A stretch of 64,000 bases of DNA from NCBI GenBank assembly GCA_964353135.1, contig CAYGTV010000002.1, positions 169,122 to 233,121 on the forward strand, in the 5' to 3' direction. Positions 12,164-60,246 of the stretch are shown here, piece after piece. The notes beneath the pieces are model-generated. The model made no database searches. It was not told the DNA's origin and saw only the letters and a program-made list of their open reading frames with translations. The stretch is from an uncultured Candidatus Saccharibacteria bacterium. GTDB lineage: Bacteria; Patescibacteriota; Minisyncoccia; Phycocordibacterales; UBA918. The translations under genes and the position numbers were made by a program. Position 1 is the first letter of the stretch; each line of letters opens with the position of its first letter.

Positions 12164-12196
12164 AAAAAGGCGGAACCTTCGGGATCCGCCTTTTTT
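12164..12196 (+). terminator. Intrinsic terminator (aaaaaggcggaaccttcgggatccgcctttttt)
   Basis: Hairpin plus T-tract directly after the stop of ORF 11460-12158. Confidence 0.7.
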
Positions 12197-12308
12197 GCTG
12201 CTCGGGTTTGTGTATGGGCGGAAGTCCTGCAAGCAGCCAGGTGCTATAATTCAAGAAACAACTGGAGGTAGTTCTTGTCTGTGGTTCCCACTTGTTCATT
12301 TATATAAT

Positions 12309-14060: not shown

Positions 14061-14061
14061 C

Positions 14062-15288: not shown

Positions 15289-15290
15289 TT

Positions 15291-17659: not shown

Positions 17660-17666
17660 TAATAAT

Positions 17667-19043
17667 ATGTTAACGAACGATCGTACATCTAACAAACAGG
17701 CTGGGCAGTTACTTGTGTTGGTTTTGGTATTTGGTGCGATCTTTTTGATTATCATCACATCGTTTATTAGCTCTGTGGTGTCACAAGCACGAGCGGTTGA
17801 TGTTCGATTTGAGCAGCAACGCGCAACAGAAATTGCAGAAGCCGGACTCAATTACTACAAGTGGTATCTAGCTCATTTTCCTGGCGATGCTTCAGGTGGT
17901 GGAATCTATACCTACACAGATCCAGAAGACGGTCCAATTGGTGAGTATGAACTAACTATCAATAGTAGCTCGTATTGTGGTGAGGTGGCGTCGATGGAGG
18001 TAATTTCAAGAGGGTATACCTTTGATAACTCTGCTGCGCAAGCAATCGTGAGTGCTGTGTACCGACGACCCACAATTGCTGAATACTCATTTATAAGTAA
18101 TGCTGGAGTTTGGTACGGAGACTCTCGAGTGATCACTGGACCAGTACATGGAAACCAGGGAGTGAGAATGGATGGAACACATAACTCGTTTGTTGGTGCT
18201 GGCGTTGCGACGTATGAAGGAAACGGTGGGGTGTATACAACTACAGCCAACGCAACTCCAGGGTTATTCCAGTACCCAATATCGCCTATCGACTTTACTG
18301 GACTAACCATCGATTTAGCTCAAATGCGAACCAGTGCTCAAGCTGATGGGATTTATTACGGACCAACCAGTGATTGGGGATACCGGGTGGTTTTCAATGG
18401 TAATGATACAGTTGATATCTTTCGAGTGACCGGCACACAGGATTACCGTTCTTTCTCATCATCAGAAGGTACCCATTGGGGAGAACGAAACGATATAACA
18501 AGCAATGTGCAAATTGCTAATAATCTAGCGATAGATCCTGATTGCCCGGTACTTTTTTTTGAAGACAAGGTATGGATTGAAGGAGCTGTAAGCGGCAAAG
18601 TGGCAGTAGCAGCAGGTCTCAACAGTAGTAATTTACAAAATAATATCGTAATTCATGATGATGTTACCTATGTAGCCGGAACGGATGCTGGATTAGTTGC
18701 AATTGCTGAAGACGATGTTGATGTGGGGATCGATGTGCCAAACAATATGATTGCCAACGGTATTTACATTGCCCAAAATGGGCGGTTTGGTCGGAACCAT
18801 TACACAACTGGAAACTTACCAAACAGCCTAGATCCTTTTGTGTCGCGCGATAGTCTCACTCGTCTTGGATCAGTAGTGTCAAATCAGCGCGGTGGGACTG
18901 AGTGGTCAAGCAGTGGTTCACACATATCAGGGTTTCGCAGTCGGACTACTTCATTCGACAGAGATCAAGTAGATAATCCTCCACCGCTCACGCCAGAAAC
19001 GTCCGATGTATATGAATTGCAGGATTGGCGATCGGAGGGGTAA
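17667..19043 (+). CDS. Pilus-associated membrane-anchored protein (PilX-like, no Glu at +5)
   Basis: N-terminal TM segment (QAGQLLVLVLVFGAIFLIIITSF). Translationally coupled to the pilin genes. Gly/Thr/Asn-rich extracellular part. Confidence 0.5.
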   Translation: MLTNDRTSNKQAGQLLVLVLVFGAIFLIIITSFISSVVSQARAVDVRFEQQRATEIAEAGLNYYKWYLAHFPGDASGGGIYTYTDPEDGPIGEYELTINSSSYCGEVASMEVISRGYTFDNSAAQAIVSAVYRRPTIAEYSFISNAGVWYGDSRVITGPVHGNQGVRMDGTHNSFVGAGVATYEGNGGVYTTTANATPGLFQYPISPIDFTGLTIDLAQMRTSAQADGIYYGPTSDWGYRVVFNGNDTVDIFRVTGTQDYRSFSSSEGTHWGERNDITSNVQIANNLAIDPDCPVLFFEDKVWIEGAVSGKVAVAAGLNSSNLQNNIVIHDDVTYVAGTDAGLVAIAEDDVDVGIDVPNNMIANGIYIAQNGRFGRNHYTTGNLPNSLDPFVSRDSLTRLGSVVSNQRGGTEWSSSGSHISGFRSRTTSFDRDQVDNPPPLTPETSDVYELQDWRSEG

Positions 19044-26385: not shown

Positions 26386-27948
26386 ATGAATGGTTGGCAG
26401 TTACTGACTGTGTGGAGTGGACTACTGATTGGAGTAGGGCTTGAAAGTTGGCTGAGTATATCATTGAACGTACTGCTACTTCTGCTTGCATTAGCGTTTC
26501 TGTCTGGGGTCTGGTGGCGACGGTTGGGGGATGTTAGAAGTTTGGTTGTTAGTCTGTGTTTGCTTCTAGTATGCATTGGCATTGTGCGCACGCAGTGGTT
26601 TGAAACCCAGTTTACCGATACACAGTTGGCCGAGCAGGTTGGCGAACGAGTAACAATTACTGGATTGGTAGCGAGCGAACCTGACGAGCGGGTTAACTTC
26701 ACCCAGTTATTTGTTGCAACTGAATCTGATGTGGTGCTAGTTAGGGCTGATCGTTTTTCAGATGTGCAGTATGGCGACGTCGTCTCGGTTTCTGGGAAAC
26801 TCGAAGTTCCAGAAGCGTTTTCGACTGATACTGGTCGGGTATTTGATTATCCAAAATATTTACAAGTACGGGGAGTGCAGTACGTAATTGGGTTTGCTTC
26901 GATTGAGGTGACGGAAAATGGACAGGGGAATCAATCACTGGCTTTTTTATACGACAGTAAAGCGCGCTTTATCACTGCGCTTGAGCAAGTAATCAGCAGT
27001 CCGCAGGTGGACCTAGGAGTCGGCTTGTTACTCGGAGTGAAGCAAGCGCTGGGAGACGAGCTTGAAACTGCGTTTCGCCAAACCGGGATTATTCATATTG
27101 TGGTTCTTTCGGGGTACAACGTGATGCTGGTGGTTGGGTTCTTCTGGTGGATCTCATCCTGGTTTCTACCGATCCGGGGACGGATTGTATTTGGTTTGGT
27201 TGGAATCACGCTCTTTGCGTTGTTGGTTGGATTGTCCGCTACGGTAGTGCGCGCTAGTATCATGGCGGCGATACTTTTGATTGGAAAATGGATGGGGCGG
27301 TTGTATGACGTTTTGCGCGCGCTCCTGTTTGCAGCGGGGGTTATGGTGCTGATCAATCCGTACATCTTACTCTACGACATCGGGTTCCAGCTCTCGTTTA
27401 TGGCAACCCTTGGACTAGTTCTACTTCTACCGCAATTTGAATCAACCTTAGCTACCCATTCCTCTACTCTCAAACTACGCGACCTGTTCATGGCTACCCT
27501 GGTTACTCAGTTATTTGTATTGCCACTTTTGATGTACCACATTGGTGAGGTGTCGATTGTGTCGGTCGTGGTCAATATGCTCGTACTTCCAATGGTGCCG
27601 GTAGCAATGATGCTGACGTTTGTTGCTGGGTTAGTTAGTTTAGTTTGGGTACCACTTGGGGCACTGTTTGGACTGCTCGCCCAGCTGCCTCTAACCTACA
27701 TAATTTTGGCAGCGGAATGGTTCGCTTCGCTACCATTTGCGGCGATCACCATTCCACCAATTTCAATCTGGACCATGGTGATGATGTATATCGCTCCGAC
27801 GGTTTTGTTTGCGCTGTGGAAGCGTCGCATGACACACCTCTCACCTGATCCAGTTGCTAACTGGACGATTGTGGAAGAAGTTGAATCCAAAACCACCCTA
27901 GAAGCGGATGCTTCTAGGGTGGCTGAAGTGCCCGTTATTTTGCGTTAG
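26386..27948 (+). CDS. comEC: ComEC/Rec2 DNA-uptake channel, membrane part (DUF4131 plus competence domain)
   Basis: Polytopic with an N-terminal OB-like segment and the conserved competence-domain region (IIHIVVLSGYNVMLVVGFF...). Confidence 0.8.
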   Translation: MNGWQLLTVWSGLLIGVGLESWLSISLNVLLLLLALAFLSGVWWRRLGDVRSLVVSLCLLLVCIGIVRTQWFETQFTDTQLAEQVGERVTITGLVASEPDERVNFTQLFVATESDVVLVRADRFSDVQYGDVVSVSGKLEVPEAFSTDTGRVFDYPKYLQVRGVQYVIGFASIEVTENGQGNQSLAFLYDSKARFITALEQVISSPQVDLGVGLLLGVKQALGDELETAFRQTGIIHIVVLSGYNVMLVVGFFWWISSWFLPIRGRIVFGLVGITLFALLVGLSATVVRASIMAAILLIGKWMGRLYDVLRALLFAAGVMVLINPYILLYDIGFQLSFMATLGLVLLLPQFESTLATHSSTLKLRDLFMATLVTQLFVLPLLMYHIGEVSIVSVVVNMLVLPMVPVAMMLTFVAGLVSLVWVPLGALFGLLAQLPLTYIILAAEWFASLPFAAITIPPISIWTMVMMYIAPTVLFALWKRRMTHLSPDPVANWTIVEEVESKTTLEADASRVAEVPVILR

Positions 27949-27954
27949 GTCAGT

Positions 27955-28545
27955 TTATGCCAAGCGCCCTGCTACCACTTCCCAGTTGAGGTTTTTGAAA
28001 AACGCATCAACGTATTGTCCTTTGTCTCCTGATACATAGTCTCGCAAGTATGAGTGTTCCCACATATCAAGTGCCAGGATGATGTCGACGTCAGCTAGTT
28101 GTCCGATGTGTTGCTCATCAACCCAGGTTTGTACGAGTTGGTCTGTGTGTGGGTCGTGATACATCATTGCCCAGCCAGTTCCGCGGGTCATGGCGATTTG
28201 TTTAAATCTAGTCAGCCACGCGTCAAACGTACCCCATTGGAATTCTATTTTTTCTTTGAGTGGACTATCTGGTAGATCAGTCGCGCCACCTTCTAGTTGA
28301 GCAAAGTAGTACTCATGGTTTCGCATACCGCCAAATTCAAACCCGAGCCGTCGCTGCATTTCTGCGATGGCATAGCCGTTGTTATCAGTGTCAGCGCTGT
28401 AGGCAGCGATTTTCTCTCGGATCAGGTTGACATGCTTAACGTACCCGGCGTATAGACCGAGGTGCATGTCGATGGTGTCTTTTGAAATCCCTTCTAGTTC
28501 TGGAATATCAAATGATACTGGTTCGTAAGTCATAGTGAAGAACAT
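27955..28545 (-). CDS. sodA: Fe/Mn superoxide dismutase
   Basis: Metal ligands and the SOD signature D-x-W-E-H-(S/A)-Y (LDMWEHSYLRDY). 196 aa. Confidence 0.9.
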   Translation of the reverse strand: MFFTMTYEPVSFDIPELEGISKDTIDMHLGLYAGYVKHVNLIREKIAAYSADTDNNGYAIAEMQRRLGFEFGGMRNHEYYFAQLEGGATDLPDSPLKEKIEFQWGTFDAWLTRFKQIAMTRGTGWAMMYHDPHTDQLVQTWVDEQHIGQLADVDIILALDMWEHSYLRDYVSGDKGQYVDAFFKNLNWEVVAGRLA

Positions 28546-29431
28546 ATTTATACTAATGCTCGCATTGTATCATGGGGGTATGGATTTGCGGGAATTGTAT
28601 CGATATGGATTGCTGGTGATTTTGGCTATTAGCGGACTTGGCCTGAGTGTATTTGGGCAGGCTAGTGGCTCTGATTTTCTCAAGGTGCACTTTCTGGATG
28701 TTGGGCAAGGGGACGCAGTATTGATTCAAACACCCGATGGATATGAAGTATTGATCGATGGTGGGGCAACTAGTCAGGTGATCAGACAGCTCGCAACAGA
28801 GCAGTCATGGAATGACAGCTTGATTGATGTGGTGATTGCCACCCATCCTGACACTGACCATGTTGGTGGATTAGTTGATGTGCTTGAGAGATACGATGTT
28901 GACCTGATTGTGCAAACGGAAGCTGAAAGCGACAGTCCAGCGGCGGTCGCGTTTTCTAAAGCGGTTGCTTTAGAAAACGCGACCGTGCAGTTTGCCAGGG
29001 CAGGGCAGGTCATCCAGGTCGGCGCCTCAACCACGATCCAGATACTCTCACCAGCGAGTGAAACTGACAACTGGCGAGCCAACGCAGCATCAGTCATAGT
29101 CCGAGTTGTATACGGTGACACGGCTTTTATGTTGACTGGTGATGCTCCAATTTCAATTGAAGATTATTTGGTTGGTGTCTATGGAGAGAGTCTACAATCA
29201 AATGTTCTCAAACTGGGTCACCATGGTTCGCAGACCTCGACCAGCGGATTATTTCTCGATACCGTTCAACCGCAGTACGCAGTTGTGTCAGCCGGTATCG
29301 ATAACCGCTATGGCCACCCAGACCAAAATGTTATGCAACGTGTGTTCGCTCGCAATATACAAACCTCTCATACTGGCATTGATGGCAGTGTTTCGTTTTA
29401 TAGTGATGGTCGGCGTGTATGGCAGGAATAA
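28535..29431 (+). CDS. ComEC C-terminal-type metallo-beta-lactamase-fold domain protein (separate ORF)
   Basis: The N-terminal TM anchor is followed by VHFLDVGQGDAVLIQTPDG...HPDTDHVGG, the MBL domain normally fused to ComEC. The true start may be 28556 or 28580, which would avoid the overlap with sodA. Confidence 0.75.
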   Translation: MKNIFILMLALYHGGMDLRELYRYGLLVILAISGLGLSVFGQASGSDFLKVHFLDVGQGDAVLIQTPDGYEVLIDGGATSQVIRQLATEQSWNDSLIDVVIATHPDTDHVGGLVDVLERYDVDLIVQTEAESDSPAAVAFSKAVALENATVQFARAGQVIQVGASTTIQILSPASETDNWRANAASVIVRVVYGDTAFMLTGDAPISIEDYLVGVYGESLQSNVLKLGHHGSQTSTSGLFLDTVQPQYAVVSAGIDNRYGHPDQNVMQRVFARNIQTSHTGIDGSVSFYSDGRRVWQE

Positions 29432-46153: not shown

Positions 46154-48178
46154 CTACTTTTTATTAAATAGTTTTGATACGCCAAGTGAGGCGATGAAAA
46201 TAAATGTTGCGAGAATTAGAAATTCGGTTTGCAGAATACTGAAACTAAAACCGTTCTGAATGAATTGTTCCAGGTCGAGTGATGCTCCGATTGAAACAAA
46301 GGTCGCGGTTCCCAAAATGATTCCAAAGAACGTCGCGATCGTGAACGGTACAAATGGAACCCGGAGAATCCCGGCTGCATAGCTAACTAGGTCAAACGGT
46401 AGGAAAATCAGACGCATGGTCAGCATACTTGTAAACGTGTTTTCTCGCAGAGCTGTAACCCAATTCCCCAGAGCACTATTTTCTAACTTCAGACCCTTAC
46501 CAAAAAAGCGACCAACTGCGTACGCGACACCAGCTGCAAGTGTTGCTGCGATAACAGTGAGAACCGTTCCCCAGATCAAGCCAAAGAAAACACCAGACAA
46601 AATAGTCAGCGCAGTAGCAGGGAAGAAGGTCACTGGACGAATGGCGTACAGGGCGATGTATACCAACGGTCCCCAAATAGTCATGGTGATAAATTCAAAC
46701 AAACGCACCGATGTTTCGGTGTTAGTCAGGCCAGTAGTTATTTGATATTGATTGAGTGCAAAGAGAGTCCCGACCCAAATAGCAGCTGCGATGATTTTTG
46801 GTGATTGTCTTTTGAGGGCTTTTTTTAGATCAACTTTCAGGTCACTAATTTGTCGGCCGACAAATTGATCGGCGGCTTTTTTTACAATTAAACTGTAGGT
46901 AGGGTAAGCAAAAATTGTTTTCTGCAATTTCAAAAGAGAAATATTTTGATCAATTGCCAGTGTAAAGACATTAAGGATTTCGCCAGCCGCTGGTCCAGCT
47001 ATATGAGCGCCCAAAACTTTTCCGCTAATCCGTTTTGCAATCACTACCAATACTCCATTTGTGGCGTCGTCGGTTTTGGCTCGGTCATTGTGTGCGAACG
47101 GAACTTCGATGCGCATGATTCGGTCCGCTCCATATTGATCAATCGCATCATGGAAGTGAAGTCCGACCTGGGCAATTTCTGGCGTTGTGTAGGTGACTTT
47201 GGGAACTGATTTGTTTGTATTAATTTTCAAAAAACCTTTACTAGTTACGCGGGTAACTACTTGTCGCGCGATGTCGTTCGCCATATGGGTGAACTTTAGT
47301 CGCTGCGCAACATCACCAACTGCGTACACTCGTTTATTGTTTGTTTGAAACTGACTGTTTACAGTTACTCCGTATTGGGAAGATTCAATTCCAGCTGACT
47401 CTAACCCGGCCGGAATATTCGGTACTCGACCGATTGCGATCAGAACTTTGTCGAACTCAACTGTGAAACTGTGTTCTGTTTGTTCACTTCGCATCTGATC
47501 AAAATGTGCGACATTTCCTTCGACCTTTTTAATTGCCGCACCGGTATGAATTGTAATCCCAAGTCCTTCAAACGTCTGCCGGATGATCGGTTGAATCGCT
47601 TTGTCTTCTAGTCGGGCGAACTGCTCACCTTGTTCGGCTATGGTCACCTGCGAGCCTAACATCGTAAACGCCTGGGCCATCTCCATCCCGATTGGTCCGC
47701 CACCGATGATCAGTAGTTTTTCAGGAACATCTTGTAGGTTAAAAATATTTTGGTTGGTCAGAATATAATCCTCGCTTAGTCCATCAATCTCAACCATGCG
47801 TGGACTGGAACCAGTTGCAATGACGGCAGTTTTGAATGTGTAGGTGGTATCCAAAACGGTGATTGAATGTTTGCTGGCAAACGTTGCCTCCCCCATCACG
47901 ACATCGATACCCAGGTTTTGAAATGTTTCCGGGGTTTCTTCTGCGAGGATACTATCAACCACGTTTCGCACATATGAAAATGCGTCGGATCCAGACATGC
48001 CTTTTTTGGCAGCGTGTAACAATGCTTTGCTTGGGACGCAACCGGTGTTGGTACATTCACCACCCATGTGTTCACGCTCTACGAGTAGAACTTTTTTACC
48101 AACTTTGAAAAAACCAACCGCCGCCGTGAGTCCGCCTGATCCGGCGCCGATAACAACTACATCGTACTGAGTCTTCAT
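46154..48178 (-). CDS. FAD-dependent pyridine-nucleotide-disulfide oxidoreductase fused to a C-terminal DedA/TVP38-family membrane domain
   Basis: N-terminus: GAGSGG FAD motif plus redox-active disulfide TNTGCVPSK (Lpd/MerA/glutathione-reductase class) and a C-terminal dimerisation region. The C-terminal ~200 aa is polytopic, resembling DedA. Confidence 0.75.
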   Translation of the reverse strand: MKTQYDVVVIGAGSGGLTAAVGFFKVGKKVLLVEREHMGGECTNTGCVPSKALLHAAKKGMSGSDAFSYVRNVVDSILAEETPETFQNLGIDVVMGEATFASKHSITVLDTTYTFKTAVIATGSSPRMVEIDGLSEDYILTNQNIFNLQDVPEKLLIIGGGPIGMEMAQAFTMLGSQVTIAEQGEQFARLEDKAIQPIIRQTFEGLGITIHTGAAIKKVEGNVAHFDQMRSEQTEHSFTVEFDKVLIAIGRVPNIPAGLESAGIESSQYGVTVNSQFQTNNKRVYAVGDVAQRLKFTHMANDIARQVVTRVTSKGFLKINTNKSVPKVTYTTPEIAQVGLHFHDAIDQYGADRIMRIEVPFAHNDRAKTDDATNGVLVVIAKRISGKVLGAHIAGPAAGEILNVFTLAIDQNISLLKLQKTIFAYPTYSLIVKKAADQFVGRQISDLKVDLKKALKRQSPKIIAAAIWVGTLFALNQYQITTGLTNTETSVRLFEFITMTIWGPLVYIALYAIRPVTFFPATALTILSGVFFGLIWGTVLTVIAATLAAGVAYAVGRFFGKGLKLENSALGNWVTALRENTFTSMLTMRLIFLPFDLVSYAAGILRVPFVPFTIATFFGIILGTATFVSIGASLDLEQFIQNGFSFSILQTEFLILATFIFIASLGVSKLFNKK

Positions 48179-48291: not shown

Positions 48292-48612
48292 TTACTTTGT
48301 TGCGGCCTGATTGGCTTGCAGTGCCAGCACTTCTTGCATCATAGCACTGCTGATTGCCACAGTCATGCTGTAGTCATCTGCCACTTCAAAGCTGATGATG
48401 CGAACACCAGCGGCGGTTTCCTTGACCATTGCCATCCGTGTTTCTGGCACGGCTGTGCAAGGAATTTCAACGTCAACTGCTTCGATCGACAAGCAGTCAC
48501 TACCTGCCCAGTACAGGTCAAACGGGTCGCGTAGCTCATTGATCGACTCTGCCCCAGCTTGTGTTGCAAGCAAGGCAGTCACGGTGATAGCTGAAAAGAT
48601 CGTTGGTCGCAT
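48292..48612 (-). CDS. Small secreted protein (signal peptide ...TQAGA/ES)
   Basis: 106 aa with an N-terminal Sec signal. Confidence 0.45.
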   Translation of the reverse strand: MRPTIFSAITVTALLATQAGAESINELRDPFDLYWAGSDCLSIEAVDVEIPCTAVPETRMAMVKETAAGVRIISFEVADDYSMTVAISSAMMQEVLALQANQAATK

Positions 48613-48843: not shown

Positions 48844-51015
48844 ATGGCACGAGCATTTCCAATCGAACGACTACGAAACTTTGGTATCGTAGCGCACGTT
48901 GACGCCGGAAAGACTACGACTTCAGAACGTATTCTTTTCTACACCGGTATGTCACACAAAATCGGTGAGGTTCACGACGGTGCAACCGTTACTGACTGGA
49001 TGGAACAAGAACGAGAGCGAGGGATTACAATTACCGCCGCGGCGATTTCTTGTAACTGGGCAAAAACCCTTGAAACTGATCGAAAGAACAAAGCTAATCA
49101 GTTCACGTTTAACATTATCGACACACCAGGTCACATCGACTTTACCGCTGAAGTAAAGCGATCGATGCGTGTGCTCGACGGAGCGGTAGTGGTGTTTGAC
49201 GGTGCAGCCGGAGTAGAGCCGCAAACTGAAACAAACTGGGGCTACGCTGACGAGGCTGAAGTGCCACGAATTTGTTTTGTAAACAAAATGGACAAACTGG
49301 GAGCGGACTTTGACGCTGCAGTAAAATCAATCCACGAACGACTGTCTCCAAAAGCAGTTCGAATTCAGCTTCCGATCGGAGCTGAAAACGATATGTCGGG
49401 AGTAGTCGACTTGATCACTATGAAGGCGTACCGATTTGCTGGTGAAATGGGAATGGATGTAACCGAAGAAGAGATCCCAGCTAACATGGTAGAGGACGCC
49501 ACAAAATGGCGAGCAGAACTGATTGAAAAAGTGGTTGAACATGACGACGTAATGATGGAAGCCTACTTTGGTGGGGAAGAGCCAACTATTGAAGCGCTCA
49601 AAGCAACGCTTCGAAAAGCTGTTCTAGCAAACGAAATCTTCCCAATCATGACCGGTACTGCACTGCAGAACATCGGTGTACAGCTCGTGCTAGATGCAGT
49701 GGTAGATTACCTACCAGCGCCAACTGACCTACCAGACACACACGGAACCAACCCTGACGATGAGGAAAAAGTTGAAACAAGGAAGCCTTCAGACGAAGAG
49801 CCAATGGCTTCACTAGTATTTAAACTACAAGACGACAAGTTTGTTGGACAGCTGGCATTTTTCCGAGTGTACTCAGGAAAGGTGACGTCTGGAACCTATA
49901 TCCTCAACTCAAGTACTGGAAACAAAGAACGAATCGGGCGAATCGTACGATTGATGGCTGACAAGCGAGAAGAAGTGGACGAAGTGTACGCTGGAGAAAT
50001 TGCCGCAGCGGTAGGAATTAAAGAGGTAAAAACTTCACACACCCTGTGTGACCTCAATGCACCGATCCTACTGGAAACCATTACCTTCCCAGCGCCTGTG
50101 GTTGCGGTGCGAGTAGAACCAAAAACTAAGAACGACCAAGAAAAAATGGGAGTAGCGCTTAAGCGACTATCAGACGAAGACCCGACGTTTACCGTTTCAA
50201 CTGACGAAGAAACACTTGAAACCATCATCGCTGGTATGGGTGAACTTCACCTCGACATCCTCGTAGATCGAATGAAACGAGAATTTGGAGTAGAAGCAAA
50301 CATCGGTGCACCTCAAGTAGCGTACCGAGAAACCATCCAAGGAACAGCTTCAGCTGATCACAAGTACGCCAAGCAGTCAGGTGGACGTGGACAGTACGGT
50401 CACGTGAAAATCAACATCAAGCCACTTGAACCTCAGGTGCTTGATGAAAATGGAGATCCAGTAAAAGCGGCAAAAAACATCGTTCGCGAGGATCACTTTG
50501 AGTTCATCAACAACATTAAGGGAGGAGTTATTCCACAGGAATATATCCCAGCCGTGATGAAGGGATGTAAAGAAGCAATGACGCGAGGATTCGTGGCGGG
50601 ATACAAAATGGAAGACGTATCAGTTGAATTATTTGACGGATCATTCCACGATGTTGACTCGAGTGAAATCGCCTTCAAACTAGCTGGTATCAATGCCTTT
50701 AAAGAAGCCGCAGCGCGAGCAAACCCAGTTATCCTGGAACCGATTATGAAAGTTGAAGTACGAACCCCAGAAGAATATATGGGAGATATCCAAGGAAACA
50801 TCTCGAGTAAACGAGGACAACTAGAAGGAACCACCGAAGTAGGAGGCAAGACAGTAGTTAACGCCCAAATCCCACTGTCAGAAATGTTTGGTTACACCAA
50901 CACATTGCGATCAATGACCCAGGGTCGAGCGTCGATGACAATGGAGTTTGATCACTACGCAGTGGTACCACCAAACGTAGCAGAGGACATCAAGAAAGCG
51001 CGGGGAGTAAACTAG
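48844..51015 (+). CDS. fusA: Elongation factor G
   Basis: G1-G5 motifs ([18 protein letters not shown]) and domains II-V. 723 aa. Confidence 0.95.
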
Positions 51016-51039
51016 TCAACTGACTCAGCTCCTACAAGG

Positions 51040-51090
51040 AAAAACAAACAAACAGCGATCGCATGTGTGATCGCTGTTTGTTTGTGCACA
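51040..51090 (+). terminator. Hairpin terminator after fusA (aaacaaacagcgatc gcatgtgt gatcgctgtttgttt plus gtgcacaag)
   Basis: 15-bp stem. The same tail motif (gtttgtgcaca) recurs after the next gene at 53262-53310. Confidence 0.55.
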
Positions 51091-51133
51091 AGCAGTGTCT
51101 ATATGGTGGTGACTTGGTATTATGAAAGTACGT

Positions 51134-53248
51134 ATGAAAAATATCGTCTCTATTATTGCTTTACTAGTTATCGCTACCTTTGTGCTGCCAGCAAACGTTA
51201 CTGCCAGCGGACTGACCTCTCCGGCTGAACTCGAAGGCTTTGCCTGGAGCGGCTACACAAACCCATCAACTGGCGCGCTTGAGGGTGTCGGCTGGATTTC
51301 CATGAACTGTTCAAACGACGGTCCAGGTGCTTGTGCTACCTCTGATTACAAAGTCCAGATTAATCCCGATGGTTCAGTCACAGGCTATGGCTGGTCACCA
51401 AACGTCGGTTGGATTAAATTTGGCGGTTTGTCTGCATTCCCAACGAGTGGTAATGCTACTGTCCAACAAAATGTAACTGCTGTAGGCACTGTTTCAGATA
51501 CAACCGACTTTACCCTTGAAGGCTGGGCTCGAGTTTGTTCCGCAACTGTCGGAGGCGACTGTTCGTCTATGACGACCGACCCTAATGCTGGTGGCTGGGA
51601 TGGTTGGATTTCTATGAGTGGGGAAACTGAGCCATCTGCCCGACCATCAAACGGTGCCTATGACATTCTTCAGTTTACCTCGACTGGCAATAACATCACC
51701 CTAACTGGTAGCGGTTGGCCAAGATCAATATTATACAATGCTGACGGTACAGTACTTTACATGGTGAAAGGAGGAGGGGTTTCAGACACTTATATTATGG
51801 AGTACTCACTATCAACTCCTTATGATGCGTTGACAGCTGTAGAAGTTGGTCCTGTTTTGACATATGCTGGTGTGGTAGACGGTACTTTTATAACAGGCCA
51901 GCCAGAAGGTATTGGAGAAATTTCATTTAATAACGACGGGACGATTTTATACAGTATAAATGCAACCAGTCCCGGGGTGCTTGCTCATCAGCTTGCGGTA
52001 CCGTATGACATTTCTTCTGCTGGCTCACCAGTAACCGTTTTGAATTTAAGTTCATACGATAACATCCCGCGGGATATGGAATTTGATAACAACGGAGATG
52101 TTTTGTATATCTTGGGAGAAAGTAATGATCAGATTTATCTCTTTGATCTAAGTACTCCGTTTGATGTGAGTTCAGCTACTTACAATCAGGTAGCACTAAA
52201 CCTTTCCGCTTTGGATATTGCTGGTAGTGGTTTTGTAACAGGGATACTTTTTAATGACGATGGCACTAAACTGTTTATTTCTGGATTTACTTTCTCACAA
52301 AGCTATGTGTACAGTTATACTCTTGGTTCTGCGTATGACATCACTACGGCTACAGGACCAGTAGGGTTTATAAATTACTCGGTAGGGATAGTCGACATGT
52401 TGTTTAATAACACCGGTACAAAGATGTACGGTTCTGATATCTTTACAAAACGTATACGAGAGTATGAGATTAATTCTCCGGTCACACCCCCGTCCTCACC
52501 CTACGGTATCACCTTTACAAACGGCGAAGCAACAGCTGACTCATTTGCTTGGGGTGGGCCAAACACTATGGGTTGGATCGACTTTTCTCCGGTTGGGACC
52601 ACACCAGTAACGGTGAAACCTCCAGTAGTGGCAGACATCGTAATCAATGGAGTTGGTTTTATACCGGGCACAATCCAGCCTGATGGTACATACGACGTCG
52701 TCACCCTTACTCCAGACGTAACCGGTATCCCAGATGGTGTACCAGTAGATTGGGATCTGTTTGTTGGCGGTCTGCCGGTTGCGGATGGTACTGTCACCGG
52801 AAACGGTCTCAACCCAACCTACGACCGGGCAATTGAACTGACCAGCGTCCCTGCCGGTACGCCGCTAGCAATACGATTTGAGGTTGATATGCCAGTAGCT
52901 GACAGTCAGGTTACTGAAACCAACGAGATAAATCAAAGGAACTTTACCTTAAACTTATCGTACCCACCTCCAGTAATCACCTTTAGTGGTCCACAAGTCA
53001 TCAGATCCGGGGAGCAAGCAGACATAACAGTTACGGTCACAGCTCCGTATGATGTGACGTGTACGTTTGCCGGACCTGGTTTCCCTAGTCCAAGCACAAT
53101 TGCAGTCAGTGGTGGTACAGGAACCGCTACCGAACGATCGAGCCCTCTACAAAACGCCACTCGATTTGAGGTTAGCTGTACGCCAGGAACAGATGTCTAT
53201 ACAGAGGTGTACCAAGTTGAAGTGATCCCAACCTTCCAAGAGATCTAA
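51134..53248 (+). CDS. Large secreted protein, paralog A (704 aa; Trp-rich GWI repeats plus internal beta-propeller-like repeats; ends ...IPTFQEI)
   Basis: Signal peptide. The N-terminal ~170 aa and C-terminal ~110 aa align with ORF 53350-54582. The middle holds roughly six or seven repeats of the (D/N)G(T/D)(V/I/K)L(Y/F) type (DGTVLYMV, DGTILYSI, NGDVLYIL, DGTKLFIS, TGTKMYGS). Confidence 0.65.
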   Translation: MKNIVSIIALLVIATFVLPANVTASGLTSPAELEGFAWSGYTNPSTGALEGVGWISMNCSNDGPGACATSDYKVQINPDGSVTGYGWSPNVGWIKFGGLSAFPTSGNATVQQNVTAVGTVSDTTDFTLEGWARVCSATVGGDCSSMTTDPNAGGWDGWISMSGETEPSARPSNGAYDILQFTSTGNNITLTGSGWPRSILYNADGTVLYMVKGGGVSDTYIMEYSLSTPYDALTAVEVGPVLTYAGVVDGTFITGQPEGIGEISFNNDGTILYSINATSPGVLAHQLAVPYDISSAGSPVTVLNLSSYDNIPRDMEFDNNGDVLYILGESNDQIYLFDLSTPFDVSSATYNQVALNLSALDIAGSGFVTGILFNDDGTKLFISGFTFSQSYVYSYTLGSAYDITTATGPVGFINYSVGIVDMLFNNTGTKMYGSDIFTKRIREYEINSPVTPPSSPYGITFTNGEATADSFAWGGPNTMGWIDFSPVGTTPVTVKPPVVADIVINGVGFIPGTIQPDGTYDVVTLTPDVTGIPDGVPVDWDLFVGGLPVADGTVTGNGLNPTYDRAIELTSVPAGTPLAIRFEVDMPVADSQVTETNEINQRNFTLNLSYPPPVITFSGPQVIRSGEQADITVTVTAPYDVTCTFAGPGFPSPSTIAVSGGTGTATERSSPLQNATRFEVSCTPGTDVYTEVYQVEVIPTFQEI

Positions 53249-53261
53249 AAATCTAAAAAAT

Positions 53262-53310
53262 AAACAACTAGTGGCCGCGTATGCGGCCACTAGTTGTTTG
53301 TGCACAAACA
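53262..53310 (+). terminator. Hairpin terminator (aaacaactagtggccgc gtat gcggccactagttgttt plus gtgcacaaac)
   Basis: 17-bp stem with the same gtttgtgcaca tail as the fusA terminator. Confidence 0.55.
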
Positions 53311-53349
53311 CATCTCGGTAGCTAGTATCTTGCTACTATATAGATACGT

Positions 53350-54582
53350 ATGAAAAATATTGTCTTAGTAGTCGCTTTATTATTTGCTGGCGCATGTGCA
53401 CTCCCAGCGTCAGTCAGCGCAACTGGAAGCACTGCTCCAATTGAATTAGAAGGCTTCGCTTGGTCGCCAAACGCAGGCTGGATTTCAATGAACTGTGCGA
53501 ACGATGGCCTTAGTGGTTGTACCACTTCAGATTATCGAGTGTATATTGAGACTGATGGGTCAGTTAAGGGCTGGGCGTGGTCATCAATTTTAGGTTGGAT
53601 TTTATTTGATGCCACTGGCCCGTACCCAAGTGGTCTATCTACCTTTGGTGATAGTGTTGGGGCGGTTGGAACATACCCTAACCTAGCGCTACGTGGCTGG
53701 GCACGGGCGTGTGCTGGTGCTGCAGATGATTTCACCTGCTCAGGTGGAATGAAAGCTAATACTGGTGGCTGGGATGGCTGGATTTCCTTTTCAGGTTCTG
53801 AATCAACCACCGGTGGAAGTTACGGTGTGACATTTGTTAACGGTGAAGCGACAGCAAACTCGTTTGCGTGGGGTGGACCAATCACAATGGGATGGATAGA
53901 TTTCTCGCCTGACGCCAGTTCAGGTCCAGCCATTCCTCCAGTATCACTCGTTCCGACCGTAGACATCACTATTCCTTCGGTTTCCTTTACTCCTGGAATA
54001 CCTGATTTGGGTGGCTATTATGATGCCGTAGCATTTTCACCAACTATACTAGGTATTCCTCTAGGTGAAACTGTAAATTGGACCATTACAGTTGGTGGAC
54101 TCACTGCCAATGGTACAGTTACTCAAACATCATCTGGTCCTGATTTCAGTCCAGTACCTTCTCTAGCTAGTGTTCCGTTTAACGTTACCGACCCACTGGT
54201 GTTTGAGGTAGATATGCCAGAACCAGGAGCAGTACGAGAAACCAACGAAACTAACGTCTTTGTTGACAACCTATTCTCGCTACCACTTCCGCCTCCGACT
54301 ATGTCAATTACCGGACCAGAGGTTGTTCGGGCTGGAGAGACGGCAGAAGTGAGTTGGGAAGTGTCCGCACCATACCCGGTTACTTGTACAGTGCAAGGGC
54401 CAGGTATAAACGAGACACTGATAATCGCTGGGTCACTTGGGTCGCCAGATCCCCAATCAGGAACTAGAGCGTCTGCTCCACTGCAAAATGCCTCTACGTT
54501 TGTTGTGAGCTGCGTGGTTGGCTCAGACACATACACCGAGACCTATGAAGTAGAAGTAATTCCAACCTTCCAGGAAATTTAA
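53350..54582 (+). CDS. Secreted protein, paralog B (410 aa; same family as 51134-53248, lacking the propeller insert; ends ...IPTFQEI)
   Basis: Shared motifs: ELEGFAWS, GWISMNC.NDG, TSDY(K/R)V, LRGWAR.C, GGWDGWIS, FAWGGP.TMGWIDFSP, and the C-terminal Y.EVIPTFQEI. Confidence 0.65.
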   Translation: MKNIVLVVALLFAGACALPASVSATGSTAPIELEGFAWSPNAGWISMNCANDGLSGCTTSDYRVYIETDGSVKGWAWSSILGWILFDATGPYPSGLSTFGDSVGAVGTYPNLALRGWARACAGAADDFTCSGGMKANTGGWDGWISFSGSESTTGGSYGVTFVNGEATANSFAWGGPITMGWIDFSPDASSGPAIPPVSLVPTVDITIPSVSFTPGIPDLGGYYDAVAFSPTILGIPLGETVNWTITVGGLTANGTVTQTSSGPDFSPVPSLASVPFNVTDPLVFEVDMPEPGAVRETNETNVFVDNLFSLPLPPPTMSITGPEVVRAGETAEVSWEVSAPYPVTCTVQGPGINETLIIAGSLGSPDPQSGTRASAPLQNASTFVVSCVVGSDTYTETYEVEVIPTFQEI

Positions 54583-54600: not shown

Positions 54601-54867
54601 ATGAAGCACTCAAAACATCTCACAGTCTTTGTCTCACTATTGCTAAGTATGCTGCTGGCAGGAGCCATAGCCTACCTATATTTAGTGTACGTGGGTGCAA
54701 GTGTAGAGGATGCTGACACTGTCTCAGATGCTGAAACTAATGTCTCAGGCCAAGCTGCAGTAACACAAGAAGCAATCATGAGGTTGCAAACACCGTCTCC
54801 TGGCACCGGTATGAGTGAAGAAGAAAAACAAGCTGCCATAGATCGGTTACAAGAACCAAGTCTATAA
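54601..54867 (+). CDS. Module 1 small membrane-anchored repeat protein (88 aa)
   Basis: MKHSKHLTVFVSLLLSMLLAGAIAYLYL TM anchor, then an acidic spacer, then two E-A-I-x-R-L-Q-x-P-S repeats. Paralogs at 57786 and 59155. Confidence 0.55.
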   Translation: MKHSKHLTVFVSLLLSMLLAGAIAYLYLVYVGASVEDADTVSDAETNVSGQAAVTQEAIMRLQTPSPGTGMSEEEKQAAIDRLQEPSL

Positions 54868-54946
54868 ATGTCGAGTACGACAACAGTGTAAAACTGGCTC
54901 GTGCGATAGTAAAAAAAGGTATTATAAAAACAGTTACTAAAACATT

Positions 54947-55741
54947 ATGCAAACACTTGTAAACACAACCAAATACATCGGCCTACTAGCAGTAGCTCTT
55001 ACTGTAGCATTAGCTGCCAACCTGACCTATGCACAATGGGTAGACCCAGATGGTATGCCTCCGGCAAACAACCCAGAACCCCCAATTAACATTTCAGGTG
55101 ACTACCAAGCAAAGCTTGGTGATCTCGGAGCGATACGTATGAGATCTGATGAGTACTGCGACGCCACCGGTGCTAACTGTTGGAACCCGTCATCTGGTAG
55201 TGGTCCAACTGGTCCCGGGGGAGACGTAGTTGTGGTTGCTGGGAGGTGTTATGCGCCACTAGACAACGTTACTGTTGACGGTGTGGTACGGAACATTATT
55301 GCTGAAGTAGCATGTGATCCACAAGAGTGTCAAGTTGAGTTTGTTACCCGAGCTAGAAATGACCGCAATACCGACATTCGAACTATTCGACAAACTTCAC
55401 CGAGTGGTCGGGCAGCAGTCTACTTCTGGCAACATAGTGATGACAATCCGCCGGGAGTGTTTGGTACTGCTAGCACCGAAATGCTAGCAGACGATGCGTG
55501 GGGGTCTTCATGGAACGACAGATCAGAACGTATCAGGGTGTATTACATGGATGATACGAAAGAATCACGATACGGAGTTACACTCCGTGGCTATGCAAAC
55601 CGAAGTGACAATCACACAGAATATGGATCGTTTCGTCTGAGGCCGGGTGAGACTACATCTATTGTTGGGCTGCAAGATGGTGCTGTATCTGCTGGATACG
55701 CCCAAGCAAGCGCACGAGTACTAAGTTGCGTTTCGATCTAA
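54947..55741 (+). CDS. Module 1 secreted Cys-rich protein (264 aa)
   Basis: The N-terminus (K-Y-I-G plus a hydrophobic stretch ...TYA/QW) and the mature start QWVDP...PINISG.YQAKLGDLG...RMRSDEYCD are conserved with 58132 and 59533. Six Cys. Confidence 0.6.
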   Translation: MQTLVNTTKYIGLLAVALTVALAANLTYAQWVDPDGMPPANNPEPPINISGDYQAKLGDLGAIRMRSDEYCDATGANCWNPSSGSGPTGPGGDVVVVAGRCYAPLDNVTVDGVVRNIIAEVACDPQECQVEFVTRARNDRNTDIRTIRQTSPSGRAAVYFWQHSDDNPPGVFGTASTEMLADDAWGSSWNDRSERIRVYYMDDTKESRYGVTLRGYANRSDNHTEYGSFRLRPGETTSIVGLQDGAVSAGYAQASARVLSCVSI

Positions 55742-55767
55742 ACTGCAAAGACAGAAATAACTGTTAA

Positions 55768-55800
55768 CAAACCGCTCGGTATGAGCGGTTTGTTCTTGCA
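55768..55800 (+). terminator. Intrinsic terminator (aacaaaccgctc ggtat gagcggtttgtt cttg)
   Basis: After the module 1 Cys-rich gene and ahead of the tuf promoter region. Confidence 0.65.
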
Positions 55801-56006: not shown

Positions 56007-57197
56007 ATGGCAGATGCATTTGATCGATCAAAAGATCACATTAACGTAGGAACCATTGGTCACGTTGACCACGGGAAAACTACTCTAACTGCTGCAATCC
56101 TCACTACGCTTAACGCAAAAGGTGAAGGATACTCAGCAAACGTGAAGGACGTTGGAGAAATCGACAAAGCTCCAGAAGAAAAAGCTCGAGGTATTACTAT
56201 TTCGCTTTCACACTCTGAATACGAAACTCCAAAGCGACACTACGCACACATCGATGCGCCAGGTCACGCCGACTACATCAAAAACATGATTACAGGAGCT
56301 GCCCAAATGGACGGTGCTGTACTTGTGGTGGCTGCAACAGACGGAGCAATGCCGCAAACAAAAGAACACATCCTTCTTGCCAAACAAGTTGGAGTACCTA
56401 AAATGCTTGTTTTCCTAAACAAGTGTGACATGGTGGACGACGAAGAAATGATCATGCTCGTGGAAGAAGAGCTACGAGAAGACCTCACAAAAGCTGGATA
56501 CGACGGAGAAGGAGCACCAATCATCCATGGTTCTGCCCTAAAGGCACTTGAAGGAGATGCTACATGGCAGGCTAAAATCATCGAACTAGTCGATGCGATG
56601 GATGCGTACTTCCCAACTCCAGAACGTGAACTAGACAAGCCTTTCCTAATGCCAATCGAGGACATCTTCTCAATTGAAGGACGAGGAACAGTGGTAACTG
56701 GTCGAGTAGAACGAGGAATGGTGAAAGTAGGTGAGGAAATCGAAATTGTTGGTATCACAGATACAAAAGTAACAACTGTTACTGGAGTTGAAATGTTCAA
56801 TAAGCAATTGGATCAAGCACAAGCTGGAGACAATGCAGGTATCCTACTACGAGGAACTAAAAAAGAAGACGTACACCGAGGTCAAGTTCTTGCTGCTAAA
56901 GGGTCAGTAACTCCACACACAGAATTTGAAGCAGAAGTATACGTTCTATCAAAAGATGAAGGTGGACGTCACACTCCATTCTTCTCAGGTTACAAGCCAC
57001 AGTTCTACGTTCGAACTACTGACGTTACAGGAGACGTAACACTAGCAGAAGGAACAGAAATGGTAATGCCAGGAGACACAGCTACGTTCAAAGTGAAACT
57101 AGTTGCTCCAGTTGCCATGGAAGAACAAACTAACTTTGCGATTCGTGAAGGAGGGAAGACTGTAGGAGCTGGTGTTGTAACTAAAATTGTCGCCTAA
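56007..57197 (+). CDS. tuf: Elongation factor Tu
   Basis: [22 protein letters not shown] and 396 aa. Confidence 0.95.
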
Positions 57198-57737: not shown

Positions 57738-57785
57738 AGTGTCTGCTATAATTTTGGTAGAGATCAACCATCAATCAACAAACTT

Positions 57786-58121
57786 ATGAAACACTCTAAA
57801 CAGTTGACAGTACTAGTAGTAACGTTATTAATACTTCTCATATTTGGAATTGCTTTTTCTCTGTATCTATTAAACATGAGTCAATCGGCAGTACTAATTG
57901 ACTCAGCAGCTGAAACTGACTCAGCAACCAAAGAAACAGACCAGTCAGAAGAAGCGATTAGATCTAGACTAGAAGCGGTGATGGGTACACAGCCGCCTGC
58001 CAGTACAGCATCAACCTCAGAAACAATTGACCGTCTGAACGCTGTAATGGAACAATCAGAACCAATAGATTCGGAGGCAGTCAAAGCTCGCTTAGAGGCA
58101 GTTATGAATAACACCAATTAA
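57786..58121 (+). CDS. Module 2 small membrane-anchored repeat protein (111 aa)
   Basis: MKHSKQLTVLVVTLLILLIFGIAFSLYLL anchor, then three repeats (EEAIRSRLEAVMG, ETIDRLNAVMEQ, EAVKARLEAVMNN). Confidence 0.55.
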   Translation: MKHSKQLTVLVVTLLILLIFGIAFSLYLLNMSQSAVLIDSAAETDSATKETDQSEEAIRSRLEAVMGTQPPASTASTSETIDRLNAVMEQSEPIDSEAVKARLEAVMNNTN

Positions 58122-58131
58122 TATATTTATT

Positions 58132-58620
58132 ATGACAACATTTTTTAGCACATTCAAACAAATCGGATTCTTTACCATCGCCCTAACACTCGCACTGGTA
58201 GCCAACTTTGCCTACGGCCAGTGGGTGAACCCAACCCAGGCACCAACCGGTGGCAACGTCGAGGTACCAATCAATACCTCAGGTGCGTCACAAATTAAAA
58301 CTGGAAATCTTGGAATTGGTAGTGTGTTTGTGGATGACACGGCGTATTCAAATAGATACTGCAATCTAGATGGTAGTGCCTGTGCAACTGTGGCCGAGAT
58401 GTTGGCAGGCGGAGGAGGGGTATCAGCGCCTACAGGTCCAACTACGCAGCTATACTCTTGTCCAAATGTTAGTAATACAGCCATGACAATCTTTGGGTGC
58501 CCATCGTCATGCAATGGGCAAGTATCTACTCGGAGTACTTGTGGTGCAGCCAGCAGAAACAGCAGCAACAATCGGTGTGAGCAAGTTCCCGTCAACTGCG
58601 CACCGATCAGTGTGAATTGA
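58132..58620 (+). CDS. Module 2 secreted Cys-rich protein (162 aa)
   Basis: FKQIGFFTIALTLALVANFAYG/QWVNPTQAPTGGNVEVPINTSGASQIKTGNLG, and 10 Cys in the C-terminal half. Confidence 0.6.
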   Translation: MTTFFSTFKQIGFFTIALTLALVANFAYGQWVNPTQAPTGGNVEVPINTSGASQIKTGNLGIGSVFVDDTAYSNRYCNLDGSACATVAEMLAGGGGVSAPTGPTTQLYSCPNVSNTAMTIFGCPSSCNGQVSTRSTCGAASRNSSNNRCEQVPVNCAPISVN

Positions 58621-59154: not shown

Positions 59155-59520
59155 ATGAGACGTTCAGAACAACTCATAGTCCTCATCACAATGATCCTCA
59201 TATTGCTGGTATTTGGTCTCGTGTTTTATTTGTATTTATCTGCTCCTAATAAAACAGTGGAGCTCGAACAGTCTAGTGCACCAGAGAGCATAACTGCAGA
59301 AGATGTTGATCCGTCACGGTTATCTGAAGCCGAAATACAAGCTCGACTGGAGTTGGTACGACCAACCATGACTGATGCTACTGCAGAGGAAAGTACAGAG
59401 ATTAGAGAAAGACTGAGTGTTGTCAGAGAAGCACAAGCAGACTTGACTCCAGAAGAAAAGGTAGCCAAAGAGGCTGAAATAAAAGCTCGGCTGGATATGT
59501 TACGAGAAACAACAAACTAA
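59155..59520 (+). CDS. Module 3 small membrane-anchored repeat protein (121 aa)
   Basis: MRRSEQLIVLITMILILLVFGLVFYLYL anchor, then repeats (EAEIQARLELVRP, STEIRERLSVVRE, EAEIKARLDMLRE). Confidence 0.55.
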   Translation: MRRSEQLIVLITMILILLVFGLVFYLYLSAPNKTVELEQSSAPESITAEDVDPSRLSEAEIQARLELVRPTMTDATAEESTEIRERLSVVREAQADLTPEEKVAKEAEIKARLDMLRETTN

Positions 59521-59532
59521 TTACAATAATTT

Positions 59533-60246
59533 ATGAACACTATCACCCAAACCTTCAAGCAAATCGGATTCTTTACCATCGCACTGACTCTGGCGTTGTT
59601 TGCAAACTTTGCCTACGGACAGTGGGCGAATCCAACTGCAGCGCCAACTGGAGGAAATATTGCAGCACCAATTAATACTAGTGGGGAGTATCAGGAAAAG
59701 TATGGAGACATTGGTGCTGGAGAATTGCTTGCAGCTAGTAGAATGCGTTCTGATCAGTACTGCAACTTGGCTGGTGATCCCGCGAGTTGTTTTTCACCAG
59801 CAGATGTGTCTGGAGGAGGTGGAGGTTCGCTTTCTGCTCTAAGTGCGTATCACACCAGGCTTGATTTGAGTGGCGTTGGTGGGAGTAATTGTAGTTGTGG
59901 AGCTGGGGATATACTTACTGGCTGCAGTGGTTTCCAAAGCGGTGATAGGACAACAGCGGCAGTTGATAATAGTAATGGCCCTGACTACTGTAGAAATGAA
60001 GGAACAGGTCAGTTTCCAATTTGTAGCTGCTTGGATATTACTATAGACAGTTGTGTCCCAATAGCGCCTGAAGTAATTACACTCCAGAGTGGTTGCGGAA
60101 CTGGAACTAATTTGTCTCAGGTGCCCCAATGTCCTGATGGTTTTACTGAGGTAAATACATACAAATCTGGCTGTGGTACTTCAAATAACGGTAATGATAG
60201 AGATAGGTACTATCGCGTTTGTAACGGTCCACCAAGATGCGAGTAA
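59533..60246 (+). CDS. Module 3 secreted Cys-rich protein (237 aa)
   Basis: FKQIGFFTIALTLALFANFAYG/QWANPTAAPTGGNIAAPINTSGEYQEKYGDIG...RMRSDQYCN, and about 16 Cys in the C-terminal part. Confidence 0.6.
   Translation: MNTITQTFKQIGFFTIALTLALFANFAYGQWANPTAAPTGGNIAAPINTSGEYQEKYGDIGAGELLAASRMRSDQYCNLAGDPASCFSPADVSGGGGGSLSALSAYHTRLDLSGVGGSNCSCGAGDILTGCSGFQSGDRTTAAVDNSNGPDYCRNEGTGQFPICSCLDITIDSCVPIAPEVITLQSGCGTGTNLSQVPQCPDGFTEVNTYKSGCGTSNNGNDRDRYYRVCNGPPRCE

Follow-up and report, generated by a model that had tools for sequence, protein, structure and literature searches.

We analysed a 64,000-nucleotide (nt) stretch of contig CAYGTV010000002.1 from an uncultured, ultra-small Candidatus Saccharibacteria bacterium (Patescibacteria; hereafter the window), in which two large paralogous genes, ORF1 and ORF2, lie between the translation factor genes fusA and tuf. 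We propose, with a probability of roughly 55%, that both encode Sec-exported, probably disulfide-stabilised and fast-evolving surface proteins that act in adhesion or host recognition and are part of a conserved three-gene cassette. A surface or host-interaction role had also been suggested in a preliminary description of the window, and it is the most plausible reading of the data presented here. The two proteins are members of a tryptophan (Trp)-rich family with a recurring architecture: a Trp-rich N-terminal domain (N-domain) that accepts loop inserts, at least one immunoglobulin (Ig)-like domain, a terminal Ig-like domain with a cysteine pair, and a short conserved C-terminal tail. A literature search found no description of this family or of the fusA-tuf arrangement in which it occurs.

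Both ORFs were found where the preliminary description placed them, as were the motifs it quoted as shared and the common VIPTFQEI ending, the only difference being LEGWARVC in ORF1 where ORF2 has LRGWARAC. BLASTP aligned the N-terminal 164 amino acids (aa) of the two proteins at 48% identity (E 9e-46) and the C-terminal 257 aa at 49% identity (E 2e-64), so that the C-terminal similarity spans about 250 aa rather than the roughly 110 aa first estimated. ORF1 has the layout of ORF2 with one addition, a beta-propeller of five repeats nested within an N-domain loop. Each protein begins with MKNIV, followed by a hydrophobic core and a V-[TS]-A|[ST] cleavage pattern with A at residue 24, the classic pattern of a Sec/signal peptidase I-type signal peptide, and together with the BLASTP identities these predicted signals bear out the earlier view of the pair as secreted paralogs. 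An N-terminal hydrophobic segment was present in all 61 aligned homologs. The prepilin signal G[FY]T[LI]xE is absent from ORF1 and ORF2, which therefore lack the class III signal peptide of type IV pilins. A lipoprotein reading of ORF2 through Cys16 was ruled out because there is no lipobox and the cysteine is not conserved across homologs. We likewise rejected an alternative ORF1 start at 51122; the start is likely 51134, because a copy of the sequence surrounding that ATG occurs upstream of ORF2 and the gene model of ORF1 in the database has 704 aa.

An AlphaFold2 (AF2) model of ORF2 built on 61 homologs (predicted local distance difference test, pLDDT, 91; predicted template-modelling score, pTM, 0.77) comprises a signal helix, an all-beta N-domain at aa ~27-190 and two beta-sandwiches at ~198-305 and 315-404; the N-domain modelled alone reached pLDDT 85 and pTM 0.82. 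The N-domain is made of five hairpin repeats of the type G-x-A-W-S-x-x-x-G-W-I-x-F, each about 30-40 aa long, with invariant Gly and Trp and a WDGWI motif. Two of its loops carry conserved cysteine pairs, and a third invariant pair lies in the last beta-sandwich; in ORF2 these are C49/C57, C121/C130 and C346/C388, which are predicted to form disulfides. Disulfide-forming machinery is enriched in the candidate phyla radiation (CPR; PMC6744442). We define the family by these five hairpins, with their invariant Gly and Trp, WDGWI motif and two loop cysteine pairs, directly following a signal peptide. ORF1 and ORF2 both belong to it, and the hidden Markov model (HMM) of the N-domain scored 190 bits against ORF2 and 180 bits against ORF1.

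The N-domain model matched no structure in PDB (best E 1.7) or BFVD (best E 0.8) by Foldseek, its profile found no match among PDB sequences, and no NCBIfam or Pfam model matched it. Pfam searches of 38 N-domain sequences returned sub-threshold noise only (NttC in three members at E 0.002, and DUF5444), and for ORF2 and these same sequences there was no Pfam or NCBIfam match to SLH, CWB2, choline-binding, LysM or WxL domains at E<=1. Scanned whole against Pfam, ORF2 gave nothing and ORF1 gave Lactonase PF10282 only. The C-terminal two-thirds of the ORF2 model resemble tandem Ig sandwiches like those of RbmA and other adhesion or scaffold proteins, and searches of the full model against PDB with Foldseek returned generic tandem-Ig matches only, namely transglutaminase barrels, RbmA and Fabs (E ~1e-5 with template-modelling scores below 0.3). 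Some homologs carry precomputed Pfam matches to PF07705, PF00801, PF18911 or PF00041, which we take to be CARDB, PKD and fn3 domains, and ORF1 and ORF2 have no Pfam match in the Ig-like region. The C-terminal domain also occurs in other proteins, since its profile retrieved seven short proteins from a word-indexed protein database, and these were the only matches and pointed to no function. The Trp-rich family is undescribed and its N-domain is without a detectable structural relative, whereas modular bacterial surface proteins, to which this possibly pilus-associated family would belong, are known as a kind.

The propeller of ORF1 is one such domain inserted into the N-domain. Its repeats, of about 55 aa each, lie at aa 204, 268, 320, 376 and 427, so five are detectable and not about seven as originally counted. 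The HMM matches ORF1 in two separate pieces, repeats 1-4 and repeat 5, with the propeller between them, and the propeller is therefore nested in a loop. It is missing from ORF2 and from P0014 and P0016, the closest relatives of ORF1; the insertion is recent and specific to the ORF1 lineage. In other family members this site holds another domain, or the loop before it holds a propeller; the N-domain acts as a scaffold on which inserted modules are displayed.

We found the family to be very large. Among 1.84 billion cluster representatives, the N-domain profile picked out 8,660 at E<=1e-3, and a threshold of E<=1e-10 left 5,811. Every named relative was a 'hypothetical protein', and every relative that could be named or located was from Patescibacteria. 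The C-terminal motif, whose distribution among relatives had been put forward as a check, is widespread: it follows the consensus P-x-hydrophobic-x-E-x-COOH, with E at -2 in 104/120 homologs and P at -6 in 98/120, and nearly all members end in it, at lengths of 316-2618 aa and with differing middle domains. TFQEI had been raised as a possible sorting signal. In ORF1 and ORF2 the tail is the end of the protein, with neither the membrane helix nor the basic tail that would follow in LPXTG or PEP-CTERM-type signals, and NCBIfam sorting-domain models matched neither protein. Because the protein stops at the motif and no membrane helix comes after it, the tail is not a sortase-type signal.

Genomic context was surveyed in 79 species-representative Patescibacteria loci (one scan added six metagenome contigs, so a few loci are duplicates). 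A family gene lies directly downstream of fusA and upstream of tuf in about 20 of the 79, and this order holds at family-protein identities down to 30% and EF-G identities down to 63%, as well as on metagenomic contigs. What first appeared to be an abnormal insertion between fusA and tuf is thus an old, lineage-typical and ancestral arrangement. Next after the family gene, 18 loci of the scan that included the six metagenome contigs encode a small bitopic membrane protein of 88-130 aa, separated from it by 1-75 nt and mostly by <=18 nt, whose acidic tail contains 2-3 tandem amphipathic motifs, roughly [ST]-x-E-E-[KR]-x-x-h-h-x-x-L; family searches with these small proteins gave weak noise only. 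The third component, which we call AWxP, adjoins family genes in 22 loci, including some far from fusA, in agreement with the suggestion that ORF1 and ORF2 are linked to the cysteine-rich genes downstream. AWxP proteins consist of a signal peptide, the pattern A-W-x-x-P...P-P-x-x-N...P-I-N...Q-x-K-x-G-x-L, and then variable Cys-rich parts that may include TSP1-like, H-lectin or Hint domains, a hint that these companion proteins may process themselves and bind carbohydrates. An AWxP profile search returned hypothetical Patescibacteria proteins only. The cassette, then, is small and variable: a family gene, a bitopic membrane protein and zero to several AWxP proteins.

Further copies of the cassette partners were seen nearby and in relatives. 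An unusual layout of a transmembrane helix and an acidic tail with 2-3 tandem amphipathic motifs (for example EAIRSRLEAVM, ETIDRLNAVM and EAVKARLEAVM) is common to three small membrane proteins of the window (54601-54867, 57783-58121 and 59155-59520) and those of loci L002, L006, L008, L009, L011, L012, L015, L086 and others. AWxP relatives with a Hint/intein-like domain, an H-type lectin domain or TSP1-like repeats are encoded in L002 (13113-14297), L087 (4744-5286) and L006 (17232-19093). In the window, three modules of a small membrane protein plus AWxP interrupt the tuf-rpsJ-rplC order, one after ORF2 (54601-55741) and two between rpsJ and rplC (57783-58620 and 59155-60246); relatives also have such genes between rpsJ and rplC and after rplB.

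Four plus-strand genes lie between fusA and tuf (Table 1). The hairpins that follow fusA and ORF1 share the tail GTTTGTGCACA; across 51016-51133 and 53249-53349 their A-rich and T-rich flanks are identical and their stem cores (CAGCGATC... versus CTAGTGGCCGC...) are different but fully compensated, the structure having been kept while the sequence changed after duplication. Each ORF had been credited with its own terminator, the two sharing a tail. ORF1 does have such a hairpin, but its tail-sharing partner is the one after fusA, and downstream of ORF2 the next hairpin comes only after 55741. Because hairpins occur after fusA, after ORF1 and then only beyond 55741, the predicted transcription units are fusA, ORF1, ORF2 with the small membrane protein and AWxP genes, and tuf. 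These terminator calls rest on hairpin folding energies and z-scores; a scan for consensus sigma-70 promoters and terminators gave counts no different from those of shuffled sequence.

Table 1. Features of the fusA-tuf interval and its flanks (positions in the window).
Feature	Position	Strand	Description or basis
fusA (EF-G), upstream flank	48844..51015	+	translation; 63-93% identical to EF-G of related loci
Terminator-like hairpin after fusA	51044..51085	+	tail TTTGTTTGTGCACA; -33.7 kcal/mol, z -7.0
Extended -10-like box	51115..51123	+	TGGTATTAT, ~10 nt before ORF1 start; copy TGCTACTAT at 53331-53339 before ORF2
ORF1	51134..53248	+	704 aa
ORF1 layout			signal peptide aa 1-24; Trp-rich repeats 1-4 aa 28-165; five-repeat propeller aa 175-455; repeat 5 aa 457-490; two Ig-like domains; tail VIPTFQEI
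Beta-propeller insert of ORF1	51656..52498	+	five ~55-aa repeats; partial Pfam Lactonase PF10282 match
Terminator-like hairpin after ORF1	53262..53299	+	-33.7 kcal/mol, z -8.0; flanks as in fusA hairpin, stem core different
ORF2	53350..54582	+	410 aa
ORF2 layout			signal peptide aa 1-24; Trp-rich five-hairpin domain aa 27-190; Ig-like domains aa ~198-305 and 315-404; tail VIPTFQEI
Conserved C-terminal tail V-I-P-x-F-x-E-I-COOH	54556..54579 (ORF2); 53222-53245 (ORF1)	+	homolog alignment
Small bitopic membrane protein	54601..54867	+	88 aa; 18 nt after ORF2; N-terminal transmembrane helix, acidic tail with tandem amphipathic motifs
Secreted Cys-rich AWxP protein	54947..55741	+	264 aa; last gene of predicted ORF2 transcription unit
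Terminator-like hairpin closing the ORF2 unit	55766..55794	+	after ORF2, small membrane protein and AWxP; -24.5 kcal/mol, z -5.9
tuf (EF-Tu), downstream flank	56007..57197	+	translation; comparison with relatives

Column identity is 78% between the regions upstream of ORF1 and ORF2; the alignment takes in the hairpin flanks, the initial codons and, about 10 nt ahead of the ATG, a TGnTAyTAT box. The duplication included the upstream region, and the -10-like box may serve as a promoter. A strong hairpin also separates fusA from the family gene in 10/10 relatives checked. With codon adaptation to translation genes as a proxy for expression, ORF1 and ORF2 scored 0.49-0.51, compared with 0.65-0.80 for the reference genes and 0.45-0.66 for other genes. 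It had been suggested that the pair was recruited to a highly expressed, co-transcribed locus; because of the hairpin, the duplicated upstream regions and the low codon adaptation together, neither co-transcription with fusA nor high expression is indicated.

Family proteins are only 45-62% identical across genomes in which EF-G is ~90% and EF-Tu ~96% identical, and the genes present in the gap vary as well, the pattern expected for exposed proteins under diversifying pressure. The relatives examined have a single copy in the fusA-tuf slot. Leaving out its insert, ORF1 is 61-64% identical to P0014 and P0016, and ORF2 is 61-64% identical to P0002 and P0003, compared with 51% between ORF1 and ORF2. 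Because relatives have one copy and each ORF is closer to those than to the other, the pair may have arisen either by an old duplication with differential loss or by gain of a second, allele-like copy via recombination.

From these features, we suggest that ORF1 and ORF2 would be exported by Sec, folded oxidatively, and then held non-covalently at the cell surface by the small membrane partner or, in pilus-linked relatives, by the type IV pilus. Binding to a host or substrate surface would fall to the Trp-rich domain with its inserts, including the propeller of ORF1, and ORF1 and ORF2 could be alternative receptor-binding variants. Several points weigh against this. The N-domain has no sequence or structural relative of known function, so that 'binding' is argued by analogy; the association of the tail with a transmembrane neighbour is modest (p ~0.01, uncorrected for shared ancestry); ORF1 and ORF2 are not beside pilus genes, the PilB and PilC genes of the window being 36 kb away; and lasting residence at a housekeeping locus would be just as expected of a constitutive structural protein of the envelope.

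A broader version of this idea, which we regard as speculative and rather unlikely, is that an unrecognised, Patescibacteria-specific surface-display system is made up of the family gene, AWxP and the small membrane protein with its acidic repeats. Here the bitopic protein would be a scaffold whose 2-3 helical docking motifs tether interchangeable secreted binders through the E-x-COOH tail or the Trp-rich domain, by a logic similar to that of cohesin and dockerin. Such a system would share components with the type IV pilus and be hard-wired into the translation-factor and ribosomal-protein cluster.

The proteins could instead be constitutive structural components of the envelope, forming an S-layer-like lattice or a wall coat in which the Trp-rich repeats bind the cell's own wall polymer and the Ig domains and tail make lattice contacts. 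We consider this possible but improbable. It would account for one copy sitting permanently beside translation genes across a wide lineage, for termini that are conserved around a variable middle, and for a GC content equal to that of the genome. Aromatic hairpin repeats right after a signal peptide are, moreover, typical of wall-binding modules, and those of ORF1 and ORF2 stand in just this position. With choline-binding repeats, GW modules and WxL domains the Trp-rich domain shares repeated aromatic Gly-Trp hairpins in an exported protein, and WxL proteins are likewise clustered with small membrane or surface partners. The Trp-rich domain differs from these in having no profile or fold match to them, a repeat of ~30-40 aa and two Cys-bridged loops, and in being N-terminal; none of the SLH, CWB2, choline-binding, LysM or WxL models matched. 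S-layer proteins are also normally among the most highly expressed, whereas the codon adaptation of ORF1 and ORF2 is no higher than that of average genes, and the very fast divergence and propeller inserts in loops look more like receptor binding. Many paralogs are, in addition, tied to pilus operons.

This tie to the type IV pilus, on which our preferred interpretation also draws, was found away from fusA. Genes for PilB, PilC, PilD or pilins lie within 8 kb of the family gene in 21/59 non-fusA loci compared with 0/20 fusA-anchored loci (Fisher p ~9e-4, shared ancestry uncorrected). In five loci (L014, L018, L031, L038 and L047) the family gene is located among pilin genes beside PilD, in L078 it is ~1.2 kb from them, and in six loci it lies directly upstream of pilB-pilC. 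Saccharibacteria pilus loci encode large non-pilin proteins that are candidate adhesins, one of them with a 7-bladed propeller (PMC11623550). ORF1 and ORF2 might by analogy be accessory proteins of the PilY1 kind, docking on a minor-pilin tip complex as adhesin or assembly primer and serving as alternative tip proteins; we think this doubtful. Like PilY1/PilC of Pseudomonas, Neisseria and Myxococcus and PilX1/PilX2 of Saccharibacteria, they are large, Sec-exported non-pilins with a signal peptide of the Sec rather than the prepilin type, they combine one conserved module with variable binding modules, they may carry a propeller, as ORF1 does, and they are proposed adhesins. PilX2 provides a precedent within Saccharibacteria (PMC11623550), PilB and PilC are encoded in the window, and part of the Trp-rich family shares the minor-pilin-operon location. 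ORF1 and ORF2 themselves, however, sit between fusA and tuf, and none of the 20 loci of their subfamily adjoins pilus genes. The pilin-operon subfamily lacks the conserved C-terminal tail, so the subfamilies may differ in function. Neither ORF matches the C-terminal PilY1/PilC propeller domain of Pfam, and the family differs from PilY1/PilC by its N-terminal Trp-rich domain, which has no Foldseek match, and by the E-x-COOH tail. A search of the 64 kb window for canonical pilin motifs, and so for canonical pilin genes, was negative.

Two further groups of genes were noted elsewhere in the window. Downstream of pilB (12195-14060) and pilC (14062-15288) are three unannotated ORFs of 587 aa (with a C-terminal CarboxypepD_reg domain), 202 aa and 458 aa (region 12195-19043). 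A ComEC without a fused metallo-beta-lactamase domain (26386-27948) is followed just downstream by a separate metallo-beta-lactamase-fold gene (28535-29431), an arrangement that fits the CPR pattern in PMC6744442.

That the proteins are secreted enzymes, for example lactonase-like hydrolases with carrier domains, is very improbable. Lactonase PF10282 does match ORF1 at aa 192-339 above its gathering score (29.7 bits against a cut-off of 21.7, E 4.9e-7), but the match is limited to profile positions 190-320 of 344 and the insert has five repeats rather than the seven blades of a lactonase-type propeller. This insert is also absent from ORF2 and the nearest relatives of ORF1, the corresponding loops of other members hold inserts unrelated to it, and the conserved core has no enzyme match.

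The idea that ORF1 and ORF2 are spurious, or were recently inserted by horizontal transfer or as a mobile island, is largely refuted: the gene content of the fusA-tuf gap does vary among close relatives, and each ORF is closer to single-copy genes elsewhere than to its partner, but a family gene occupies the slot across distant relatives, the GC content overall and at third codon positions (GC3) of both ORFs equals that of the rest of the window, and spurious ORFs would not have hundreds of homologs and a confidently predicted fold. Phage origin was ruled out in the absence of homologs in phage and viral collections: tblastn against a phage collection gave no match to ORF2 or the AWxP protein, and a scan of IMG/VR found no relatives.

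Our preferred interpretation, that of surface adhesins or host-recognition proteins, can also be set against two other groups of characterised proteins. Gram-positive adhesins with CARDB, PKD, fn3 or RbmA-like domains share with ORF1 and ORF2 a signal peptide, a string of Ig-like domains and fast divergence. ORF1 and ORF2 differ in lacking an LPXTG-type or other membrane-helix sorting signal and any known wall-binding module, and by their undescribed N-domain and fixed position in a translation-factor cluster. In the CofJ-CofB pair of enterotoxigenic Escherichia coli (ETEC) and the TcpF-TcpB pair of Vibrio, a secreted protein is recognised by the pilus tip via a short terminal peptide. Sec export and a short conserved terminal peptide are common to these and to ORF1 and ORF2, whose peptide could by analogy be a docking signal; CofJ and TcpF have their signals at the N-terminus, in type IVb pilus systems of diderms, whereas the peptide of ORF1 and ORF2 is C-terminal.

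Several features of the surroundings were also observed. In the window and in the relatives examined, fusA has no upstream rpsL-rpsG, the classical operon being already fragmented in this lineage. Upstream of fusA on the minus strand (46154-48178) is a divergent gene for a pyridine-nucleotide disulfide oxidoreductase fused to a VTT/DedA-type membrane domain, a neighbour also present in L002 and L086, and between it and fusA lies a 106-aa ORF (48292-48612, minus strand) with a signal-like N-terminus and no family match. One locus with the same order of fusA, family gene and tuf (L048, JBLHQB010000009.1) is labelled Patiriisocius sp., presumably a flavobacterium; its EF-G and EF-Tu are 84-86% identical to those of the window, and it is probably mis-binned. 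No Rfam family reached threshold at 48-64 kb, where no ribosomal-protein leader was detected in the ribosomal-protein cluster, and ARAGORN predicted no tRNA gene anywhere in the 64 kb.

The locus defines a very large undescribed domain family, with thousands of clusters, that has three genomic signatures: a fixed fusA-tuf slot, membership in pilus operons, and recurrent pairing with two further undescribed families. The str/S10 cluster of this lineage is interspersed with secreted-protein cassettes, each insulated by a terminator, which is unusual for bacterial operon evolution, and the conserved flanks around a fast-evolving gene would provide a handy marker locus for strain-level variation in metagenomes. 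Patescibacteria of the Paceibacteria/Parcubacteria type represent a large share of bacterial diversity, are almost all uncultured and are believed to live attached to other cells, and we know of no attachment machinery described for them beyond type IV pili. The family of ORF1 and ORF2 offers concrete candidates for surface and host-recognition proteins, together with a testable model of their interactions, and thus a lead to how uncultured Patescibacteria may attach to other cells.

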